Below, piece after piece: positions 15,188 to 35,488 of a stretch of DNA of 44,120 nt. Source of the DNA: Enterobacteria phage mEp213. Position numbers and translations under genes: made by a program. The first letter of the stretch is position 1; every line of letters begins with the position of its first letter. The stretch lies in the sequence record NC_019720.1; one strand, 5' to 3'. The notes beneath the pieces were generated by a model. That model was not told the origin of the DNA, made no database searches, and worked only from the letters and a program-made list of their open reading frames with translations.

Positions 15188-15207
15188 GTGCTTCGGCACT
15201 TTTTTTA
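15188..15207 (+). terminator. Terminator-like hairpin immediately upstream of J
   Basis: GTGC-TTCG-GCAC stem-loop followed by T7 that runs into the J start codon. Confidence 0.4.
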
Positions 15208-18200
15208 TGGGTGAAAAAATGCAGCTTCTTAAACAAGAAACCATCCTGCAGGGTGCCAAAGGGGGAGGTGGCAGTTCACATACTCCTGTTGAGCAGCCTG
15301 ACGATCTGTTGTCGGTCGCAAAATTAAAAATGCTCATTGCCGTTTCTGAGGGGGAAATACAGGGCGACCTGACCGCTCAGAATATTTTTCTCAACGATAC
15401 GCCGCTGGCAAACGACAGCGGGGAATACAACTTCAGCGGCGTGAAATGGGAGTTCCGCAAGGGCACACAGGACCAGACCTATATTGCCGGGATGCCCCAG
15501 GTCGACAACGAGCTGGCCGTGGGCACAACTGTCACCACCACCGCGCCCTGGACGCGCCAGTTTACAAACCTTTCCCTGGATGCCATCCGTATCAAGCTCA
15601 GCCTTCCGGTCCAGTATCTCTATAAAGATAATGGCGATATGGTGGGCACGGTCACCGAGTATGCGATCGATTTATCAACGGACGGCGGCGCCTGGAAAAC
15701 GGTTGTAAACGGCAAGTTTGACGGAAAGACCAAGACGGAATATCAGCGTGACCACCGTATCGATCTGCCAAAATCCACGTCCGGCTGGTCTGTCAGGGTC
15801 AGGCGTATTACGGCTGATGCCAGCGGATCAAATTCGAAACTGGTTAACGCCTTCAAGGTGTTTTCGTATGCGGAAGTCATCGACAGCAAGCTTCGTTATC
15901 CTTTAACAGCGCTCCTGTATGTCGAAGTGGACAGCAGCCAATTCAACGGCAGCGCGCCGAAAGTGACCTGTAAGATAAAAGGCAAGCTGATTAAGGTTCC
16001 GGATAATTACGATCCGAAAACCCGAACCTATTCTGGTTCATGGTCCGGCGGGTTCAAAATGGCATGGTCCAATAACCCTGCCTGGATCTTTTACGATCTG
16101 GTTCTGGATGAAATTTACGGCATGGGCACGCGCGTGGATGCGTCCATGGTGGATAAGTGGGCGCTGTATTCAATCGCCCAGTACTGTGACGAAATGGTTT
16201 CCGACGGGGCCGGTGGCACCGAACCGCGTTTCACCTGCAACGTTTTCATTCAGAGCCAGGAGGACGCCTGGCAGGTACTTAACGATCTCGCCGCGGTATT
16301 TCGTGGAATAACGTTCTGGGGCAACGATCAGATTTATGTCCAGGCAGACGTCCCGCAGGACGATGTTGACTGGGTTTATAACGTCTCAAACGTTATCGAT
16401 GGGCTGTTTACTTATGCGGGCGGCTCATACAAGAATCGCTACAGCTCCTGCCTGGTGTCCTGGTCCGATCCGCAGAATCATTACAGCGATACCGTTGAGG
16501 GGGTCTACGATTCGGCGCTGGTAGAGCGTTACGACGTCCGGCAGACGTCCCTGACCGCAATCGGCTGCACCTCGCAAAGTGAAGCGCACCGGCGCGGTCG
16601 CTGGGTATTACTCTCCAATGCCAAAGACGGCACCGTATCGTTTGGCGTGGGGTTGGACGGTTATATCCCTTTGCCCGCTGAAATTATCGGTGTCGCCGAT
16701 CCTTTCCGTTCTGGTAAGGAGAACGGGGGCCGCATAAGCGCGGTCAACGGCCGCCAGATTACCCTTGATCGAGAAATAGACTACGCGGCGAAAGACCGGC
16801 TGGTGGTTAACCTTCCCGACGGAAAAGCCCAGACGCGGACAATCAGCGCGGTGAGCGCCGATAAAAAAACGGTGACGGTGGCTACGGCATTCAGTCAGGT
16901 TCCTGTGGCTGGCGCTGTCTGGGCGATAGACAGTGATAACCTCGCAATACAGTACTTCAGGGTCACCTCAATCGCGGCTAACGACGACAGCACAGGCGGT
17001 TTCACTATTACGGCCGTTCAGCACGATCCAAACAAATATCGTTACATCGATGACGGCGTTCGGGTCGAGTCTCCCCCGATCACCGTCACGCCGATAAGCG
17101 TCCTGTCTGCTCCGAAGAATATCGTGGTGACTGAGAGCGATCATGTGTCTCAGGGGCTGACTGTAGCAAGCCTGGACGTGTCATGGGATAAGGTAGAGGG
17201 CGCAATCCGGTATGTTGCCCAGTGGCGTAAGGACAACGGGGACTGGATAAACGTTCCGGTTACCAGCGCGCAGGGTTTCTCGGTTCAGGGCATTTATTCG
17301 GGCAGCTATGACGTGCGCGTACGGGCACTGAATGCGCAGGATACGTCGTCACCATGGGGATACGGTGAAACAACTTATCTCTCCGGTAAAACGGGAAAAC
17401 CGGGTACTCCGCTCAACTTCCTGGCGACCGAAGATGTGGTCTGGCATATCGACCTGACATGGAAATTTCCGGATGGCTCAGGCGACACGGCCTATACAGA
17501 GATTCAGCGCGCCACAACTGCCGACTACGCCAATCCTGAACTGCTGGTCCTGGTGCCGTACCCGGCTGCAGATTATCAGCATGGCCCCATGCCTGCCGGC
17601 GTTCGCCAGTGGTACCGCGCGCGCCTGATTGACCGTATCGGTAACGCCGGGGACTGGACCGACTGGATCATGGGCACGTCCTCGATAGATGTCAGCGAAA
17701 TAACCAATGACATTCTGGAGGATATGAAAGAGTCGGAAACGTTCAAAGACCTGATCGAGAACGCGGTGGACAGCAACGAAAAAATTGCTGGCATGGCTAA
17801 CGATATCAAACAGGCTAACGACGAACTGGAGCAGCAAGCGAAAGATATCGCCAAAAATGCCCAGGACGTAGGGAAGGTTCAGACCAGCGTTAATGAGCTT
17901 TCCAGCACGGTCGGGAATGTTTCGTCTTCACTCAGTCAGCTTGAGCAGACCGTTGCGACGGCTGATACCGCCCTGGGCCAGCGAATCGACAACATCAGCG
18001 TTTCTATGGACGGCATGACGGGCGGGGTGAAGAACTCTGCAATTGCGATAATCCAGGCCAACCTCGCTCAGGTGGCCACGCGTAAAACCCTTTCTGCATC
18101 GGTCGCCGGCAACAGCGCGAATCTGGACCGTATTGATGAGGTGATTGTCAACGACAGGGAGGCAACGGCGCGCTCGCTGCTGAGCCTGCAGACGGACGTT

Positions 18201-18887
18201 AACGGCAACAAGGCATCCATAAACAGCCTGAATCAGACGTTCTCCGACTATCAGCAGGCAACGGCGCGCTCGCTGCTGAGCCTGCAGACGGACGTTAACG
18301 GCAACAAGGCATCCATAAACAGCCTGAATCAGACGTTCTCCGACTATCAGCAGGCAACGGCCACGCAGATAAACGGCATCACGGCGACCGTGAACGGGCA
18401 TACCTCAGCCATCACCACTAATGCTCAGGCGATAGCCAACGTTAATGGCGACCTCAGCGCGATGTATAACATCAAGGTTGGCGTAACCAGTAACGGGCAG
18501 TATTACGCTGCCGGGATGGGGATTGGGGTTCAGAATACACCCTCCGGCATGCAGTCACAGGTAATATTCCTGGCCGACCGATTTGCTGTTACCACTGCTG
18601 CCGGAAACAGCGTGGCGTTACCATTTGTGATCCAGAATGGTCAGACGTTCATCAGGGCCAGCTTCATTCAGGACGGTACCATTGAGAACGCCAAAATCGG
18701 TAACTATATCCAGTCGAATAACTATGTGGCTGGCTCTGCAGGCTGGAAACTTGATAAGGGGGGCACCTGGGAAAACTGCGGCAGCGACGGTCAGGGAGCA
18801 AGAAAATCCACCAATGTCACTGACAGTATCAGGGATTCAAATGGCGTGCTCCGCGTGCAAATCGGCAAACTTACAGGGGTGTTTTGA
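15207..18887 (+). CDS. J: Tail tip/central fibre protein J (host specificity)
   Basis: 1226 aa; lambda gpJ-like through the N-terminal two-thirds (SSHTP, KWALY.I.QYCD, GGTEPR.TCN); divergent, shorter C-terminus. Confidence 0.9.
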   Translation: MGEKMQLLKQETILQGAKGGGGSSHTPVEQPDDLLSVAKLKMLIAVSEGEIQGDLTAQNIFLNDTPLANDSGEYNFSGVKWEFRKGTQDQTYIAGMPQVDNELAVGTTVTTTAPWTRQFTNLSLDAIRIKLSLPVQYLYKDNGDMVGTVTEYAIDLSTDGGAWKTVVNGKFDGKTKTEYQRDHRIDLPKSTSGWSVRVRRITADASGSNSKLVNAFKVFSYAEVIDSKLRYPLTALLYVEVDSSQFNGSAPKVTCKIKGKLIKVPDNYDPKTRTYSGSWSGGFKMAWSNNPAWIFYDLVLDEIYGMGTRVDASMVDKWALYSIAQYCDEMVSDGAGGTEPRFTCNVFIQSQEDAWQVLNDLAAVFRGITFWGNDQIYVQADVPQDDVDWVYNVSNVIDGLFTYAGGSYKNRYSSCLVSWSDPQNHYSDTVEGVYDSALVERYDVRQTSLTAIGCTSQSEAHRRGRWVLLSNAKDGTVSFGVGLDGYIPLPAEIIGVADPFRSGKENGGRISAVNGRQITLDREIDYAAKDRLVVNLPDGKAQTRTISAVSADKKTVTVATAFSQVPVAGAVWAIDSDNLAIQYFRVTSIAANDDSTGGFTITAVQHDPNKYRYIDDGVRVESPPITVTPISVLSAPKNIVVTESDHVSQGLTVASLDVSWDKVEGAIRYVAQWRKDNGDWINVPVTSAQGFSVQGIYSGSYDVRVRALNAQDTSSPWGYGETTYLSGKTGKPGTPLNFLATEDVVWHIDLTWKFPDGSGDTAYTEIQRATTADYANPELLVLVPYPAADYQHGPMPAGVRQWYRARLIDRIGNAGDWTDWIMGTSSIDVSEITNDILEDMKESETFKDLIENAVDSNEKIAGMANDIKQANDELEQQAKDIAKNAQDVGKVQTSVNELSSTVGNVSSSLSQLEQTVATADTALGQRIDNISVSMDGMTGGVKNSAIAIIQANLAQVATRKTLSASVAGNSANLDRIDEVIVNDREATARSLLSLQTDVNGNKASINSLNQTFSDYQQATARSLLSLQTDVNGNKASINSLNQTFSDYQQATATQINGITATVNGHTSAITTNAQAIANVNGDLSAMYNIKVGVTSNGQYYAAGMGIGVQNTPSGMQSQVIFLADRFAVTTAAGNSVALPFVIQNGQTFIRASFIQDGTIENAKIGNYIQSNNYVAGSAGWKLDKGGTWENCGSDGQGARKSTNVTDSIRDSNGVLRVQIGKLTGVF
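18162..18353 (+). repeat. Perfect tandem duplication, 2 x 96 bp, in frame within J
   Basis: Identical 96-nt units at 18162-18257 and 18258-18353; encodes ATARSLLSLQTDVNGNKASINSLNQTFSDYQQ twice. Confidence 0.9.
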
Positions 18888-19189
18888 TGTCATGGGGTAT
18901 ACAAACATGGGATGCGTCGGGTAAACCCAACAACTACGGTATCAAGCCAGTTTCAGTTGTTGGGCGTATACAGCTGGCTGCCGGACAAAACTCCGGCAGT
19001 TGGTCTTTCGCGATGCCCTCAGGAATGAAGGTCGGCTTTGTGCTCTCACTTGATGAAGGTGGAAACAGCGTAGGGAGGCGCATTGTCGCGTCAGGGAACA
19101 CAATAACCGTAACCGCTGCCTCTTCTGTAGGCCTAGGTAATTACCCGGCCTCTAAGTGTGAGGTGATCGTTTTCATGGAGAAAGTATAG
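18884..19189 (+). CDS. Hypothetical protein, single copy of a domain repeated in the next ORF
   Basis: 101 aa; start overlaps J stop (TGATG); shares W-G-x3-W-D-A-S-G-K motif with the downstream ORF. Confidence 0.5.
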   Translation: MMSWGIQTWDASGKPNNYGIKPVSVVGRIQLAAGQNSGSWSFAMPSGMKVGFVLSLDEGGNSVGRRIVASGNTITVTAASSVGLGNYPASKCEVIVFMEKV

Positions 19190-19863
19190 TGTCTGACTTT
19201 GGCGCAATGATATTAATGGAGAACGGCAATCCCTTTGTTACACCACAATCAACGCCTTTCTGCCTCTACGGAAAATACTCCTTCAATTCCTCAGCTAATG
19301 GCAGCTCTCAGCAGGTGGCGCAATATCTTTCGGTTCCTGACGATTATCCGGCAATGGTCTTCATAAAAACGACTAATACTGCGCAGCCGACCCCGGTCAT
19401 TTCATATCGGATTGGAGGAAATGTCTATATTAGTGGCGTAAATCCCTATAACCAGGGCTTTACGCTGACAGCATATGTATTTGCAATTTTTCCGCAAACA
19501 CTTCCCGCGTGGGGATTTGCTATCTGGGATGCCTCCGGGAAGCTTGTTCTGACGAACGAATCAAGGGTGCTTTCTGATCTGCAAACAGTGGGCACGCCAG
19601 GTGCAAGCGGCGGGATTAATATTGACCAGACGCTGAGCGGGTCATGGGCTGTTGCGCCTGCTCAGTTGGGTCAGACCATCATTGTGAATAATTCAACCAA
19701 GCCTCCGACTATCTACACGATAAATGCTTATTCTTCATGCAGGTTTGACGGGGCCAATACGAGGATAAACGCAGGGGGGACCTCCACTGGGGCAGGTTCA
19801 CCTGGAGGGGGAACGAATACTGGCATTTCATTAACCGCCATAAATACAGCGGCCTATGATTGA
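19189..19863 (+). CDS. Hypothetical protein with two tandem copies of the same domain
   Basis: 224 aa; GTG start overlaps upstream stop, GGAGAAAG RBS; second half repeats the WGFAIWDASGK motif; Gly/Thr/Ser-rich tail. Confidence 0.5.
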   Translation: MSDFGAMILMENGNPFVTPQSTPFCLYGKYSFNSSANGSSQQVAQYLSVPDDYPAMVFIKTTNTAQPTPVISYRIGGNVYISGVNPYNQGFTLTAYVFAIFPQTLPAWGFAIWDASGKLVLTNESRVLSDLQTVGTPGASGGINIDQTLSGSWAVAPAQLGQTIIVNNSTKPPTIYTINAYSSCRFDGANTRINAGGTSTGAGSPGGGTNTGISLTAINTAAYD

Positions 19864-19900
19864 TTGATCGTTTTTAGCGATCAATAACATAATATTGATC
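19863..19900. promoter_or_regulatory. Dyad with three GATC sites upstream of lipoprotein moron
   Basis: ATTGATCG-N7-CGATCAAT inverted repeat plus a third GATC 18 bp away, all within about 40 bp. Confidence 0.4.
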
Positions 19901-19974
19901 TATCCAATCAATTATACCCACCAGAATTGTATTGGTATCGTCTAAGATACTGAATTCCTCTGGATACTATCAAA

Positions 19975-20208
19975 ATGAGAAAACTGATTATCTGCATGGC
20001 AGGCGCTGTCATGCTTACAGGATGCGCTGGCGTAATTGAGAAACAGGAACCAGTTTGCAGCGGCACTGCAATCGTTGGCGGTCAGGAAACTACGGTTCAG
20101 ATTTACGGTGTGCGTAAACAAAACAACCAGACGCAGTACCGGGCTGGATATCCTTTCAGCTGGCGCTGGGTAAGTGCGAATACATTTACCGAAACAACCT
20201 GCAAATAA
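19975..20208 (+). CDS. Small lipoprotein moron (possible Cor-like superinfection exclusion protein)
   Basis: 77 aa; signal peptide with LTGC lipobox; standalone between tail genes with its own downstream terminator; Cor assignment is positional only. Confidence 0.5.
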   Translation: MRKLIICMAGAVMLTGCAGVIEKQEPVCSGTAIVGGQETTVQIYGVRKQNNQTQYRAGYPFSWRWVSANTFTETTCK

Positions 20209-21907: not shown

Positions 21908-22140
21908 TGTGCCGTATTTGTGACATATATATGGCAACATCATGCATCAACTTTCTGTTTGTGCCATCAACTATAGCTTAGTGAATGCGGTTAATGCTTG
22001 CTAAAACAGATAGTTATGATTGGTGCTACAGATTCGTAATGCGAAGGTCGTAGGTTCGACTCCTATTATCGGCACCATTTAAATCAATGAGTTACCTCGC
22101 ATTTAAGTAAACCACGTTCTCCTCTTGTGCCGTATTTGTG
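21908..22140. other. attP-like region: 16-bp arm-type direct repeats flanking a tRNA-derived core
   Basis: TTGTGCCGTATTTGTG at 21908-21923 and 22125-22140; further GTGCCAT words between them. Confidence 0.5.
22032..22077 (+). other. att core: 3' 46 nt of a tRNA-Thr(CGU) gene (thrW-like), not a complete tRNA
   Basis: Matches remembered thrW 3' part from the anticodon loop through T-arm to CCA; no matching 5' acceptor strand upstream. Confidence 0.6.
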
Positions 22141-24942: not shown

Positions 24943-25739
24943 TTCACCTCCTGCTGCGGTGCTGCTGCGAGCATGGACTCGGTTTCTGCAATCAGGTGGC
25001 GAGGTAACTGACTGCCAGAACTTTGCATTGCGCGACCAAATGCTAACCAGCGCCGCAATATGTTAGCTGAACCATCCGGAGTTACCGGAGAGTTGCCAGC
25101 CTGAACAGTAGGCATATCCGGACCTTTGCGAATCGCCCTGGCAAGATCGATTGGGTCGTCGTATAACCAGTCACCTGTTTGCGGATGATTGGCCTCTGCC
25201 AGTTGCGCCGCCCATTCAAGGCCGTCTTTGTGACCTTGCAGATAGTCCAACGGCAACTCATCACGATTACTTACGGGTTCGATTTGTTCGGAATTACCGG
25301 ACAACTGCATGGTACCTTCATTGGTGAGGGTACCATCGGACTGAAGCATGGCGGCGCGGCAGGCGTTCACATCACCGTAAATCGGACCGATTAGATTAAA
25401 TCCTTTCATGGGGCAGCCAGCAGGAGAATAAGCAACTGCGCCATCATCGGACACGAATAAAAAGCCAACTGGTTTCAAATCAGGCACAGATGCCGGCGCT
25501 GGCGGGGCGGTGTAGAGAGTACGAGTGTCCTCACCGTCGCTGCTAAGGCGAATCATTTCATCCTCGTCTACGTCAGACCAGGTATCATCGCTGTTGCCGT
25601 AGACTTGATGCACAGCCTCCGCTTCGAGCGATGCCAGCGCGATACGCGCCAGCGCCGAAGCCTCACCACATTGAACGTGGTCAGTTTCGATAATTTGCTG
25701 TAACTGCTCTTTGGTGAATTCTTTGATAATAGTGCTCAT
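24939..25739 (-). CDS. Hypothetical acidic protein (266 aa)
   Basis: Long ORF with start/stop overlap with neighbours. Confidence 0.5.
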   Translation of the reverse strand: MSTIIKEFTKEQLQQIIETDHVQCGEASALARIALASLEAEAVHQVYGNSDDTWSDVDEDEMIRLSSDGEDTRTLYTAPPAPASVPDLKPVGFLFVSDDGAVAYSPAGCPMKGFNLIGPIYGDVNACRAAMLQSDGTLTNEGTMQLSGNSEQIEPVSNRDELPLDYLQGHKDGLEWAAQLAEANHPQTGDWLYDDPIDLARAIRKGPDMPTVQAGNSPVTPDGSANILRRWLAFGRAMQSSGSQLPRHLIAETESMLAAAPQQEVK

Positions 25740-26014
25740 GGGCGAATCTCCGTCCTGCCACCAAGTAAGCGGATTGCCACTCGTTCCCGGAAGGTAAGCG
25801 GTCGATGGTGTCCGCGGGCATTAACAATTTCAGGCTTTCCATTAGGCGGATAATTGACCCTGACCGATTGACCATCTAGCGCGTGAGAAGCCTCGAGTAG
25901 TGCTGACTTTAAGTGCGCAGGGCACTCTTTCTGCACCCGCTCGCCGTCTGAAATGACACCTGCAATCCCCTGAAGCATGCTGGCTAAATTGCTGAGATAA
26001 TTTTTCACATTCAC
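25736..26014 (-). CDS. Hypothetical protein (92 aa)
   Basis: ORF with start/stop overlap with neighbours. Confidence 0.45.
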   Translation of the reverse strand: MNVKNYLSNLASMLQGIAGVISDGERVQKECPAHLKSALLEASHALDGQSVRVNYPPNGKPEIVNARGHHRPLTFRERVAIRLLGGRTEIRP

Positions 26015-26451
26015 TCTCCTTTACCGGTGCCATAGGCAGATAAGCACTCTTCAAATCCAGCCTGATTATCCGTTTGACCTAAACTGAAGCCATGCTGAAG
26101 ACCATGACGAAATGCGCTATCTTGCAATTTATCTGCGCTATCGAGCTTCGCTTCCAGTTTAGCAATACGCTCCTCATACCGAGCGCCAACGGAAACGGCT
26201 TTATGGAAGGCTTCGCACCATTTTGACGATTGCGCCTGCATCTTCTCCAGCTCATCCAGAAGCGCCAGCACGGTAGTGGGGTTTGCTGCGGAGTTCAGCG
26301 CGTTCAAGGCAGTGATATCTGCATCAAGCTGAGTTCCTTCTGCCAGTGAGATATCGAAAATGTCATCAGGCGGCATAACACTAAGGCGCTCATGTGCGCC
26401 AACTGCTGCCGCTGCGATTTCACGCAGCGCCTGTTTGTCGATGTTGCTCAT
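26011..26451 (-). CDS. Ea22-like early protein, paralogue B
   Basis: N-terminus [16 protein letters not shown] parallels the next gene ([14 protein letters not shown]); coiled-coil middle. Confidence 0.5.
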   Translation of the reverse strand: MSNIDKQALREIAAAAVGAHERLSVMPPDDIFDISLAEGTQLDADITALNALNSAANPTTVLALLDELEKMQAQSSKWCEAFHKAVSVGARYEERIAKLEAKLDSADKLQDSAFRHGLQHGFSLGQTDNQAGFEECLSAYGTGKGE

Positions 26452-27092
26452 TGGGCTGCCTCCTTGCGAATCTGCTCCCTGAACAAGCGGGCTGAGACGA
26501 TGATGTCTCTGATGCGTACTGATTTTTCGTCGAACTGCTCACCACCGTTTTTAATATGCGCATCCAGTTCTGCACTGTGATGCCGAATGAAAGCGTTGAG
26601 GTCATGCGCCCGCGCTTCAGCCAGGAAAGCGTCGGTGGCTGGGGTTTTGTTATCTGACTCCAGCCACTGGTTGTAGTAATAATAGAACATGCCAGTAGGA
26701 TAACCACATCCGCTGTGCACGTGGTCTTTCATAGCAGAACCACACATGCAGTAGTCATTGTCAGTATTACTAATGATGTCGATAAGTTGCTGTGTCCGTT
26801 GCTTCAACATCGCATTCTCCGCCGCCAGCGCCGAAAACTTCTCGTGTGCCAACTTAACAGCTGCATCAGCCTGCTTAATTGACTCAGTCGCTTTCTGGTG
26901 GTCTTCGGCCAGCCCTGCTAAATCAGCCTCCAGTTCGGCTAGGCGTTCATTTAATGCATCTCGTTCATCCAGTAGAGCCAGCACAACCTGAGGTGTGACT
27001 TTCATACGAAATGCCAGCAATTTTTGAGGTGTTGCTACTGTTTCAATTGCTACTGCTGCCTCACGCAGTACCTGATAGTCAATCTTGCTCAC
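26448..27092 (-). CDS. Ea22-like early protein, paralogue A (GTG start)
   Basis: AAGGAGG 6 nt upstream of GTG 27092, which overlaps upstream stop (GTGA); Cys/His cluster [15 protein letters not shown]. Confidence 0.5.
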
Positions 27093-27256
27093 TGGTTGCC
27101 TCCTTTGCGCCACATCGCATTCAGATATTTGTTGTCATTAACAGAACCGAAACTATTTCTCTTAAGCAATTCCTCTCTCGATGGCATTGGCTTTACGCGT
27201 TGGCGAATAATCATTTCTGCCGGAAGAATGCCGGGATTGTATGCAAGTCCTCTCAT
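27089..27256 (-). CDS. Hypothetical small protein (55 aa)
   Basis: GAGGAA RBS 6 nt upstream of ATG 27256; trimmed from the listed 115-aa ORF. Confidence 0.35.
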
Positions 27257-27266
27257 GGTAAATTCC

Positions 27267-27560
27267 TCAGTCATTACTGATAGCGCCATAGCGTGAGCGG
27301 TAATTACGCAGGCGCGGGTCAATTTCAGGGAAGTGGGTATATGTGGCTTTGCGGAATGGTCGGATTGATGTCTGGTAAATTCGCTCGCGTTCTTCTTTCT
27401 CTGCAAGCCATATACAATGGCGAAATTCCTTTTCATCTTTCGTTTCCTGCGGTAGAGACATTATCTGGTCGTAGTTTTTCCTGAATTTATCCAGCACCTC
27501 CGATACGGATTTGCCGGAACAGCGGCGCGGGTCATCCGCACCATACAGAGGCGCTGGCAT
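27267..27560 (-). CDS. Hypothetical protein (97 aa); position and length fit P22 Abc2 but unverified
   Basis: ORF immediately downstream of the erf-ssb pair in the leftward operon. Confidence 0.4.
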
Positions 27561-27583
27561 AATGGAATCCTTATTTTGCTACT

Positions 27584-27967
27584 TTAGAAGGGAATTGAAT
27601 CGTCGTATTCAGGATGATTTTGATGATTGCTACTTTGCTGCTGTTGGCTGTTTCCTGAAGTTGCAAATCCAATCTTTGCATTCAGTAATTCAAGAGTGAT
27701 TGATTGACCATTTTGCCCCTGATAAACATCAACCCTGATGTTTTCTCCGGTAATTTCCACAATGCCACCTTCAACAAGAACACTACGGTAGTAATCCGCT
27801 TGCGCTCCTGGCTTGGCAAATACAACGGCGCTGTAGTTTGTCCATTCTTTCTTTTTTGTCTGGCGATCGTAATACTGAACGCCAGCACGGATGTTGAATC
27901 CGATATTTTCCCCGGCCTGAAACTCTCTTGCGGGTTTGTTTAGTCTTACAGTAATCGAATGTGCCAT
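27584..27967 (-). CDS. ssb: Single-stranded DNA-binding protein-like
   Basis: 127 aa; OB-fold-like body and C-terminal acidic tail ending DDSIPF; start overlaps erf stop (TAATG). Confidence 0.55.
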   Translation of the reverse strand: MAHSITVRLNKPAREFQAGENIGFNIRAGVQYYDRQTKKKEWTNYSAVVFAKPGAQADYYRSVLVEGGIVEITGENIRVDVYQGQNGQSITLELLNAKIGFATSGNSQQQQSSNHQNHPEYDDSIPF

Positions 27968-28572
27968 TAAGCAGCCGCTCCTTCTAATTCGTCTCGTCTG
28001 ATGTTGTAAACGTCCTGCGCTTTGTGCTGCTCCGGTGTTCCTTCGAGCATCTTCCACGCTTTGGCGAACGCCTGTTTAAGCTCTTCCACGGTGTTTTTCT
28101 GCATTGCTGCGTCAGTGAATGCTTTTAGAACCTGTTCAGGTGTAGGTGATGGTTTTGATTGCTTTGCTACTGCGTTCTGCTGATGTTTATGCTCGTCTGT
28201 ATCTGCATCTTTCGCATCATCAATGCCGAACAAACCATTGAGGCAATACTTGCGTGCATAAGAGCTTGTAGCTCCCGTAACTTGTGCAGAATCCATCCCT
28301 TTCTTGCTTTCTTCCTCTCGTGCAAGAGCGGTTGCCGTATGACTGTTTTCGCCATCGGTAATAGTTGCCGTGGCTTTCACGTAATACCGATCACCAATCA
28401 ACACAACTTCATCGCTGATTGATAAAAACAGGCCATTCAGTAACGGCTTAACGCCTTCAAGAATGTCTTCGCAGCTTCTGTATTTATATTTTCCGAATGA
28501 GTTGTACTGATTCTTTGGCGCGTTCAGATTTTCCTGAATAGCTGCCAGTCTTGCGTAAAATTCTTTGCTCAT
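27967..28572 (-). CDS. erf: Erf single-strand annealing recombinase (P22 Erf-like)
   Basis: MSKEFYARLAAIQENLNAPKNQYNSFGKYKYRSCEDILEGVKPLL... closely matches remembered P22 Erf. Confidence 0.85.
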   Translation of the reverse strand: MSKEFYARLAAIQENLNAPKNQYNSFGKYKYRSCEDILEGVKPLLNGLFLSISDEVVLIGDRYYVKATATITDGENSHTATALAREEESKKGMDSAQVTGATSSYARKYCLNGLFGIDDAKDADTDEHKHQQNAVAKQSKPSPTPEQVLKAFTDAAMQKNTVEELKQAFAKAWKMLEGTPEQHKAQDVYNIRRDELEGAAA

Positions 28573-29121: not shown

Positions 29122-30090
29122 TTAGTAGGTTATTTTTGTTGCGAATACTTCGCCTTTTACGATGGCTGTTATGATATTTTTAGCAACATCTTCTGATGCA
29201 CCAACCTTGATAAGGTCAGCAAGTATTTTGTTATTTACTTCTTTCCGGTGAGCTTTATCCTTTGCTCTACGCTCTTCTTCTTCCTTGATTCTTTTTTCTT
29301 CTGCTATTCTGGCTTGCTCTTTTGCTTCAGCATCGCGCCGGATTCGTTCAGCCTCCTCCTGTGCTTTTCGGCGTTCTGCTTCAATTGCCGCCTGCTTTTC
29401 TCTTTCAGCTCGTTCTGCTGCCTCTTTTGCTTCGCGCTGTGCTCGTTGCTCGGCCTCAATGCGTTCACGCTCTGCACGTTCCGCTGCGGCCTTAGCTTCT
29501 GCTTCTCTCCTTGCTGCTGCTTCAATTTCGGCTTTTGCCTTTGCTTCGGCTTCTGCTCTGGCTTTCTCTTCAGCTTCTCTTTTTAAGCGTTCTTCATGCT
29601 CTCGCTTTTCCTGCTCCGCTTTGAGTCTTGCCTCTTCTCTTTGGCGGTCAAATTCGCGATCCATCAAAATCGCTATTTCATGGTCAGACTCAATTTGCTT
29701 TGCGAGAGCTTCAGCTGCTGCCTTAGCTTCTTCTTCGGCTTTAATCCGTGCCTGTTCCTCCTCATAATCAGTAAGAGGCTGGCGCGCCTTGGCTTTCAGC
29801 TCATCAAGGCGATCACGCACTGTCTTGCGGTTGGCATCAATTAGCTTTGGAATTTCCTTCAGTTCAGCAACAAGGTCTTTGCCAAGACCATCGAGATATG
29901 TTTTCGTCTGCGCAACTTTATACGCCAGAGAAGCGATCTCCTTTCTGCCCTTTGCCGTTGTGATATCAGGCGCAAAGGACATAACTTCACGTTCAACCCT
30001 TTGAAGGATTTCTTCAATCTGGTCGGCAGACTGAAATACAGTCATTGCATTTGCTTTTTCAATAACAACTAAATCTGTTACTTCACTCAT
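29122..30090 (-). CDS. Charged coiled-coil/single-helix protein (E/R/K/A-rich), unknown function
   Basis: 323 aa from ATG 30090 (GGAGGA RBS); central 200 aa of EEARLKAEQEKREHEERLKREAEEKARAEAEAKAKAE-type repeats. Confidence 0.6.
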   Translation of the reverse strand: MSEVTDLVVIEKANAMTVFQSADQIEEILQRVEREVMSFAPDITTAKGRKEIASLAYKVAQTKTYLDGLGKDLVAELKEIPKLIDANRKTVRDRLDELKAKARQPLTDYEEEQARIKAEEEAKAAAEALAKQIESDHEIAILMDREFDRQREEARLKAEQEKREHEERLKREAEEKARAEAEAKAKAEIEAAARREAEAKAAAERAERERIEAEQRAQREAKEAAERAEREKQAAIEAERRKAQEEAERIRRDAEAKEQARIAEEKRIKEEEERRAKDKAHRKEVNNKILADLIKVGASEDVAKNIITAIVKGEVFATKITY

Positions 30091-34680: not shown

Positions 34681-35488
34681 GTTAGCTGATTACAGGCCTC
34701 AACTGGAGGTCGTGGAGCATCGCGTGGCAGATACCGAAGATGGTTTCATGCGCGTTGCTAACGAGATTACCGACAGTCTGCTGATGGCTGATTTAACCGT
34801 CCGGCAGATGAAGGTGATGCTCGCTATCATGCGCAAGACATACGGATTCAATAAGCCGATGGATCGACTCACAAACACGCAGATAGCAGCCATGACAGGT
34901 ATTCATCACACTCATGTTTGCGCTGCCAAGCGCCAGCTTATTGAGCGTAAATTCCTCATTGCTGATGGCGTGAAAATCGGAGTGAACAAGGTAGTTTCGC
35001 AGTGGATTAGCCAGGACAGCTTAACATTAGCTAAAACAGCTAATAAAACATTAGCCAAGTCGGCTAATGGGTATAAGCCAAGTCAGCTAAACACAAAAGA
35101 CAATATACAAAAGACAATAAATACAAATACCCCCTTACCCCCTAACGGGGGTGGCGATGGGCAGGTTAAACCTGAACGTCGCAAGGCAGAACGAATCGAC
35201 TACGAATCCTTCCTGAACGCCTACAACACCGAAGTCGGTGACAGACTGCCACACGCTGTTGCGGTCAACGAGAAACGCAAACGCCGCCTGAAGAAAATCA
35301 TCCCGCAACTGAAAACGCCAAACGTGGACGGTTTCAGAGCGTATGTCAGGGCGTTTGTGCATCAGGCCAAGCCGTTTTACTTCGGAGACAACGACACGGG
35401 CTGGACAGCTGATTTTGATTATCTGCTGAGGGAAGACTCGTTAACGGGAGTTCGGGAAGGGAAGTTTGCAGACAGGGGGATTGCATGA
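34667..35488 (+). CDS. O: Replication initiator (lambda O-like) containing ori
   Basis: 273 aa; N-terminal O-like DNA-binding region, iterons embedded mid-gene, stop overlaps helicase start. Confidence 0.8.
35027..35130. promoter_or_regulatory. Origin of replication: three about 18-bp dyad iterons at 24-bp spacing plus AT-rich tract
   Basis: TTAGCTAAAACAGCTAAT / TTAGCCAAGTCGGCTAAT / AAGCCAAGTCAGCTAAAC followed by ACAAAAGACAATATACAAAAGACAATAAATAC. Confidence 0.65.

Follow-up and report, generated by a model that had tools for sequence, protein, structure and literature searches.

Gene J of the lambdoid Enterobacteria phage mEp213 encodes the central tail fibre, or tail tip protein, of the virion, and its distal part contains a perfect in-frame tandem duplication of a 96-nucleotide (nt) unit. 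The window analysed here is the complete 44,120-nt stretch of record NC_019720.1. Each of the two copies encodes the same 32 residues, ATARSLLSLQTDVNGNKASINSLNQTFSDYQQ. The features of J that are relevant to the duplication are:

15207-18887, plus strand: gene J, central tail fibre / tail tip protein of 1226 residues (open reading frame, Pfam, and PDB homologues)
17970-18449, plus strand: older degenerate array with a 96-nt (32-residue) period and no insertions or deletions (indels), residues 922-1081 (16-residue layout and motif scan)
18160-18169, plus strand: 10-nt microhomology AGGCAACGGC, first occurrence, at the 5' edge of copy 1
18162-18257, plus strand: copy 1 of the 96-nt unit in codon register, residues 986-1017 (repeat searches and translation)
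18256-18265, plus strand: second occurrence of the 10-nt microhomology, at the novel junction between the copies
18258-18353, plus strand: copy 2 of the 96-nt unit, residues 1018-1049, 100% identical to copy 1 (repeat searches and translation)
18352-18361, plus strand: third occurrence of the 10-nt microhomology, at the start of the next, older unit (ATATQING...)
18408-18821, plus strand: Phage_Tail_Tip domain (PF09327), residues 1068-1205, the non-helical distal part of the fibre (Pfam)

The duplicated unit and the older array

Tandem Repeats Finder identified a 96-nt period with 2.1 copies, 100% matches, and 0 indels at positions 18160-18361. In a second repeat search, the two 96-nt copies found at 18160-18255 and 18256-18351 were 100% identical; read in codon register, they lie at 18162-18257 and 18258-18353. 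The total periodic span of 202 nt corresponds to two units and 10 nt, and the periodicity outruns two full units because the 10-mer bounds each unit. The longest exact match at a lag of 96 nt is 106 nt at the repeat, compared to 8 nt for the next longest anywhere in J, which excludes a chance origin of the repeat. The open reading frame 15207-18887 continues across the repeat without a stop. An earlier note on this DNA had described a perfect in-frame 96-bp duplication of a 32-residue segment of distal J at 18162-18353; the repeat searches and the translation confirm the description, and the coordinates are those of the same repeat in codon register. An antisense open reading frame of 157 residues (17928-18401, minus strand) lies over the repeat, and nothing supports its status as a gene.

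The duplicated unit is the third member of an older array. When the protein sequence is arranged in rows of 16 residues, a periodic register free of indels extends from residue 922 to about residue 1097. The older units, placed in the 96-nt register, share 44-48 of 96 nt. In single-copy relatives, the 5' edge of the unit reads AGGCAACGGC and the 3' edge reads AGGCTACGGC in HK106 or AGGCTATGGC in Eeyore. In mEp213, the perfect 10-mer is present at all three unit boundaries, which are 96 nt apart. The 10-mer encodes the (Q)ATA at the start of the duplicated unit (ATARS...) and of the unit that follows it (ATATQ...). Since the older units share the register and the start motif, the 10-nt microhomology is a remnant of the older repeat array.

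Copy number in other records and related fibres

The copy numbers given here were taken from deposited assemblies and refer to the individual records. Both records of mEp213, the window and the separately deposited, permuted record PV340538 of 2025, contain two copies, and the two sequences differ by 1 mismatch and 0 gaps. The record of mEp043 c-1 from 2012 (JQ182734) also contains two copies. In the record of the sister phage mEp043 from 2025 (PV340537), the unit is present as three perfect copies, and the J gene measures 3777 nt compared to 3681 nt. The full-length comparison of PV340537 and JQ182734 shows 0 mismatches and one 96-nt gap over 42,780 nt, together with an overlap of 4 nt at the start and end of the permuted record. 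Copy number is the sole difference between the two mEp043 records. All head and tail genes lie within positions 1-25000 of the window, which match mEp043 c-1 at 100% identity, and the 2025 records of mEp043 and mEp213 differ in copy number despite their otherwise identical structural arms.

The remaining relatives contain a single copy. HK106 and Eeyore have no tandem repeat, and the unit is present once in the alignment. The gene J of HK639, which is 87% identical in DNA sequence to positions 18000-18763 of the window, also has one copy, and the spans of the other HK and mEp phages matched are about 96 nt shorter. In a search of 5,426 complete genomes of E. coli, all 37 full-length matches span 504-505 nt for a 601-nt query, which indicates one copy. 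A 28-nt junction probe with degenerate third positions, specific for the duplicated allele, identified no contig in IMG/VR beyond the mEp043 c-1 record itself, and had no match in GTDB genomes or in JGI metagenomes. The J site is thus polymorphic: HK106, Eeyore, and the 37 E. coli prophages each have the unit once, mEp213 has it twice, and the mEp043 record from 2025 has it three times. The copy number of the site is unstable. The proposals of the earlier note that the duplication is very recent and that the site could be prone to copy-number variation both agree with these comparisons: the copies have zero divergence, and their number differs among the records.

Several differences among the records lie outside the repeat. 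The sole mismatch between the window and PV340538 is at position 22080 (T versus A), on the border of the attP core as annotated (22032-22079); this is the position where the permuted record begins and ends. The early regions of mEp213 and mEp043 c-1 are mosaic (59% coverage at 99.1%), and the identical structural arm reflects either a very recent natural module exchange or recombination in laboratory handling. No immunity-gene mutation separates the record of mEp043 c-1, a clear-plaque mutant, from that of mEp043 from 2025. Both stocks may be c-1; otherwise, the lesion of c-1 differs from what the name suggests.

Phage T1 (NC_005833) contains a duplication of its own. The gene of gp33 (25043-28561) includes a perfect tandem pair of 99-nt units at 27809-28006 with 0 differences. 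The T1 pair is aligned by HMMER to the two copies in J of mEp213, and the duplicated element is the homologous penultimate unit of the shaft. In both proteins, exactly one older unit is positioned between the pair and the AMYxxKxG sequence at which the tip domain starts, with a length of 34 residues in T1 and 35 residues in J of mEp213. All four T1 records have two copies, and no instability was seen among them. Most T1-like phages are 99 nt shorter at the site of the T1 duplication and so have one copy. Phage vB_SsoS_008 has two mutually diverged copies, the second of which is identical to the T1 unit. The T1 pair and the diverged pair of vB_SsoS_008 therefore place the two-copy state in at least two natural Tunavirus lineages.

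More distant members of the family contain related repeats. P0109, a protein from a degraded prophage, has a 32-residue duplication, in a shifted register, across the two homologous units. In an exhaustive search of cluster representatives, adjacent units of 32/33 residues with at least 85% identity were found in 6 of 147 diverse family members; one pair is perfect, and the six pairs are located at various positions along the shaft. No period-32 repeat other than that of P0109 was found among the best 120 homologue clusters of a search of 5.8 billion proteins. The fibre of F2 pyocin has two diverged units, compared to one in HK106-type J proteins. Unit duplication is thus the normal mode of growth of this shaft.

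The full-length J protein of the mEp phage itself is absent among the matches listed in the 5.8-billion-protein search. In the degraded prophage that encodes P0109 (GCA_027668575.1, 6001-7296), J is cut to 431 residues, and the protein has a longer C-terminal end than J of mEp213. The open reading frame overlaps the end of a Phage_min_tail M-like gene that follows the tape-measure gene, and its product begins with ...YQQATATQIDSISV. The database homologues of the J C-terminus are mostly partial proteins at contig ends, mainly from draft genomes of Enterobacter hormaechei and E. coli, which suggests that short-read assemblies often break within J genes.

Structure of the shaft and the genes downstream of J

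J has the domain organization of the lambda gpJ / TipJ family, with an N-terminal hub, FNIII domains, and a C-terminal tail-tip fibre domain. The Pfam matches are to FNIII-A_GpJ (E-value 1.3e-40), Phage-tail_3 (5.8e-13), and Phage_Tail_Tip (5.9e-49). The closest homologues with solved structures are T1 gp33 (PDB 9L9P, E-value 1.5e-292) and the F2-pyocin fibre (PDB 25VF, E-value 5.9e-284). Lambda gpJ matches the N-terminal hub (residues 20-630) with an E-value of 2.2e-125. According to the annotation of the identical mEp043 c-1 / mEp213 records and the open reading frames, J ends the tail-tip gene block, in which the tape measure is followed by homologues of M, L, K, and I.

The duplicated units align to residues ~987-1047 of the F2-pyocin fibre (PDB 25VF; PA0641). 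The shaft of F2 pyocin is an experimentally resolved three-stranded alpha-helical coiled coil (PMC13455828), and the resolved shaft comprises residues 907-1085 (preprint). In AlphaFold2 predictions of the J monomer, the units are helical, with predicted local distance difference test (pLDDT) values of 77-90 when a single sequence was used and 82-93 with an alignment of 60 sequences. The continuous helix comprises residues 852-1086 of J in the single-sequence prediction and residues 970-1054 in the prediction with the alignment. The boundary between helix and strands is accordingly displaced from about residue 1086 to about residue 1054, and strands are predicted from about residue 1058 when the alignment is used. 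The assignment of the duplication to the fibre shaft by the earlier note is in agreement with both the predicted helix and the resolved trimeric coiled coil of the homologous pyocin residues. A helix break at residues 934-939 (DGMTGG) was considered as a site of side-fibre attachment by comparison with G955 of F2 pyocin and is not claimed as such, since the side fibres of Ur-lambda attach instead through a collar on the tube.

The hydrophobic positions L991, L994, V998, N1001, I1005, L1008, F1012, Y1015, T1019, and L1023 are separated by 3-4-3-4-3-4-3-4-4 positions, as read from the sequence. The spacing sums to 32, equivalent to four heptads and one stutter per unit, and a one-unit insertion therefore preserves the register of the coiled coil. 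Standard coiled-coil geometry corresponds to 0.148 nm per residue, so that each copy would add about 4.7 nm (32 x 0.148 nm) to the trimeric helical shaft.

The central fibre of F7 pyocin converts from a 163-residue coiled coil into a beta-prism of triangular shape when it contacts the cell, and mutations that block the conversion abolish killing (He et al. 2026, PMC12874032). Each strand of the prism carries the motif SxSxxMxxLxS in alternating direction, and AlphaFold methods predicted both states for 21 of 24 siphophage fibres, including that of HK639 (PMC12874032). The homology of J to the pyocin fibres extends over the last ~400 residues, since the C-terminal 376 residues of J align to the F2-pyocin fibre 25VF with an E-value of 7.9e-29. 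Matches to the motif alternate between forward and reverse at residues 954, 971, 986, 1003, 1018, 1035, and 1050, one every 16-17 residues. Within each unit, a single forward match (ATARSLLSLQT) is followed by an NG turn and a single reverse match (ASINSLNQTFS); the unit therefore looks like one beta-hairpin of the prism, to which it probably corresponds. J is a likely but unproven member of the fold-switching class of fibres.

The genes that follow J, and a recombination gene considered below, are:

18884-19863, plus strand: two small genes (101 and 224 residues), a candidate locus of a separate receptor-binding protein (open reading frames)
19975-20208, plus strand: cor, superinfection exclusion, associated with FhuA (annotation of mEp043 c-1)
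27967-28572, minus strand: ERF-family single-strand annealing protein (Pfam ERF, E-value 5.6e-44)

The two small genes are annotated as HK022 p24/p25-like, and genes of the locus as similar to those of HK022 and N15. The 101-residue protein has a sub-threshold Pfam match to Tailspike_C. The order of the two small genes and cor (18884-20208) downstream of J matches the gp32/gp31/cor arrangement of T1, and the locus is regarded in the literature as the source of the FhuA-type receptor-binding protein. According to the BASEL study and a receptor-prediction preprint from 2026, phages of this kind have their receptor specificity in the locus immediately downstream of gpJ; both propose that the C-terminal tip makes J compatible with the receptor-binding protein encoded there. 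The receptor specificity of mEp213 is probably determined by the genes downstream of J, and the T1-like C-terminal end of J probably docks the separate receptor-binding protein encoded there. A change in the length of the shaft would then alter its reach or mechanics and not the choice of receptor. The earlier note had regarded the divergent C-terminal end of J as receptor-binding. The end is indeed divergent, but because it is T1-like and followed by the downstream locus, it is more probably a docking tip. The account given in that note is thus upheld for the duplication, its recency, its position in the shaft, and the variation in copy number, but not for an effect on host range or for the receptor-binding end. 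The older 32-residue array, the recurrence in T1, and the likely membership of the shaft in the fold-switching class are additions to it.

Two further repeats are present in the window. A degenerate 6-nt period, GCTTCT, with ~14 copies and 64% matches, is located at 29495-29578 in a minus-strand gene annotated as TolA-like / Sf6 gene 33-like, and is probably a coding repeat of low complexity. At 35088-35143, A-rich 14-nt repeats (2.6 copies) lie beside two copies of TACCCCCT within the replication gene O (coordinates transferred from PV340538), and may be origin iterons.

Origin of the duplication and comparison with known systems

Most probably, one structural module of the fibre shaft has been doubled in tandem and in register, and the event is real and very recent. 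From the anatomy of the locus, it most likely originated by replication slippage or by illegitimate or unequal recombination between two of the 10-mers, which would have doubled the unit between them. Two perfect 96-nt copies could then undergo homologous unequal exchange or single-strand annealing, through which the copy number would drift. Candidate catalysts of the exchange are RecA of the host or the ERF protein of the phage; an Abc2 anti-RecBCD protein is also encoded in the window. Such exchange or annealing would explain the difference between two and three copies in the mEp043 records. By homology to the pyocin fibres, the insertion of exactly one period is expected to keep the reading frame, the hydrophobic register, and the alternation of the strand motifs, so that the fibre would still assemble, with the extra length placed between the tail-tip hub and the distal tip. 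If the shaft switches as in F7 pyocin, which the motif and the homology make conceivable, each unit would contribute one beta-hairpin per chain. As each inserted unit would bring an even number of strands, the topology of the prism would also be kept, and the copy number would alter the prism length and the stroke of the switch.

Several observations weigh against this interpretation. The duplicated allele was seen only in two laboratory-propagated phages with a common 25-kb identical arm, and it may never have circulated widely. The two copies in the 2012 record of mEp043 c-1 could in principle be a collapsed three-copy array, and no publication or sequencing method for PV340537 and PV340538 was found in the literature. 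Slippage or recombination as the mechanism is deduced from the anatomy, not from observation. The fold switch has, to our knowledge, been shown experimentally in a pyocin and in no phage. The beta-prism of J was not obtained by AlphaFold2, in which the units stayed helical in the monomer prediction with the 60-sequence alignment, although a monomer cannot form a trimeric prism. The fibres of lambda and T5 are without the extensive fold switch according to He et al. (PMC12874032). The region of J has 10 matches to the strand motif compared to 2.6 +/- 1.7 in shuffles, 0.05% of which reach 10, but the motif classes were set from residue frequencies quoted in PMC12874032 and the shuffle statistic is only indicative.

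It is possible, if rather unlikely, that the duplication is a neutral accident of laboratory propagation, which occurred after isolation of the phages, was tolerated because it is in register, and has no natural role. Several findings are consistent with such an origin: the allele was seen in mEp213 and mEp043 alone, two phages that have 25 kb in common at 100% identity and passed through the same laboratories; it is absent from the metagenomes, the GTDB genomes, and the 5,426 E. coli genomes searched; its copies have zero divergence; and two records without any other mutation differ by two versus three copies. However, the duplications in T1, in vB_SsoS_008, where the copies have diverged, and in 6 of 147 distant family members indicate that such events arise and persist in nature, and the F2-pyocin fibre has two diverged units at the place where HK106-type J has one. 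The accidental origin is compatible with the mechanistic explanation given above and disputes only its significance.

Alternatively, the copy number could be an adaptive and rapidly mutable setting of the reach of the tip through lipopolysaccharide or capsule, or of stroke or energy, that alters adsorption or host range. Three independent events at the same penultimate unit, a copy number that changes faster than point substitutions accumulate (0 single-nucleotide polymorphisms in 42.8 kb), and the fit of the unit to the hairpin motif of a fold-switching shaft point in this direction. Nevertheless, local microhomology explains the recurrence at the same site equally well, most relatives have a single copy, and receptor specificity is probably encoded in the downstream locus. 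We consider the proposal unlikely. A more specific model, in which the unit is a hairpin of a metastable coiled-coil spring and the copy number dials how far the fibre reaches as well as the stroke or energy of the switch that drives opening of the tail tip, is similarly doubtful.

The possibility raised in the earlier note that the repeat is an assembly artefact, a mis-expanded or mis-collapsed array in a genome that is truly single-copy, is very improbable. Zero divergence between the copies and the absence of the junction from all other collections searched would be expected of an artefact. Nevertheless, it is excluded as an explanation by independent records: two separately deposited and differently permuted records of mEp213 both have two copies, assemblies of a single batch contain two copies for mEp213 and three for mEp043 and thus resolve copy number, and four T1 records from different stocks contain an equivalent perfect duplication. 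The exact preservation of the reading frame also speaks against an artefact. Programmed variation, whether by a contingency locus, a phase-variation switch, or a diversity-generating retroelement, would fit a variable copy number within a host-recognition gene but can be dismissed, because a 96-nt unit that is always in frame in one to three copies, with the frame open in all states, cannot switch expression on and off and does not resemble the many copies of 1-10-nt units that shift the frame or promoter at contingency loci, the copies are identical and not mutagenised, and the anatomy shows no dedicated machinery, although reverse transcriptase and invertase genes were not specifically searched for.

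The duplication in J adds a new example to a known class of event, the change of repeat length in the shaft of a phage fibre. The expansion of in-frame repeats in fibre genes is a familiar route to a change in fibre length, and the event itself is ordinary. No publication that joins tandem duplication, tail fibre, coiled coil, and host range was found in the literature. The value of the site lies in the public records, which contain otherwise identical genomes with two and three copies together with close relatives with one copy; the instability of the site is thereby demonstrated, and the variants are present in freezers. The independent duplication of the same penultimate shaft unit in T1 adds to this value. 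The unit matches one period of a shaft whose pyocin homologue reportedly stores energy as a coiled coil and releases it as a beta-prism, and phages that differ by one unit would provide a clean test of the roles of shaft length and hairpin number in siphophage adsorption and DNA ejection. If the spring model is true, the two- and three-copy stocks of mEp043 and mEp213 are ready-made isogenic variants for studies of the fold switch. In practical terms, assemblies and annotations of J genes deserve to be checked for collapsed copies.

T1 gp33 is similar to J in its full-length homology, in the common C-terminal end ...RVQIGRLTG, and in its own perfect duplication of the homologous unit. The T1 unit differs in its length of 99 nt (33 residues), and its breakpoints are ~9 residues away in register. 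In addition, T1 is a virulent phage of the Drexlerviridae, and the C-terminal 350 residues of gp33 are unresolved in its structure (9L9P chain S). Lambda gpJ shares with J the architecture of the tail-tip hub and the position of the gene, and residues 1082-1158 of J align to the distal domain of lambda gpJ, residues 858-934. In contrast, no counterpart of the repeat region was aligned in lambda gpJ (PDB 8IYK and others), and lambda gpJ carries its own LamB-binding domain. The central straight fibre of lambda, residues 808-998, is much shorter (PMC13455828).

The fibres of F pyocins align to J over their full length and have the SxSxxMxxLxS pattern with alternating direction. However, the pyocin is a bacteriocin, its units are old and diverged, and its shaft bears side fibres, a feature that is not known for mEp213.

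In other fibre and antireceptor genes of phages, such as those of collagen-like and segmented coiled-coil fibres, in-frame repeats alter the length of the shaft by unequal recombination and leave the terminal domains intact. J of mEp213 differs from these in that its repeat unit coincides with one period, of 32 residues, in a shaft with probably two alternative folds, and in that otherwise identical genomes with different copy numbers, those of the two mEp043 records, are available.

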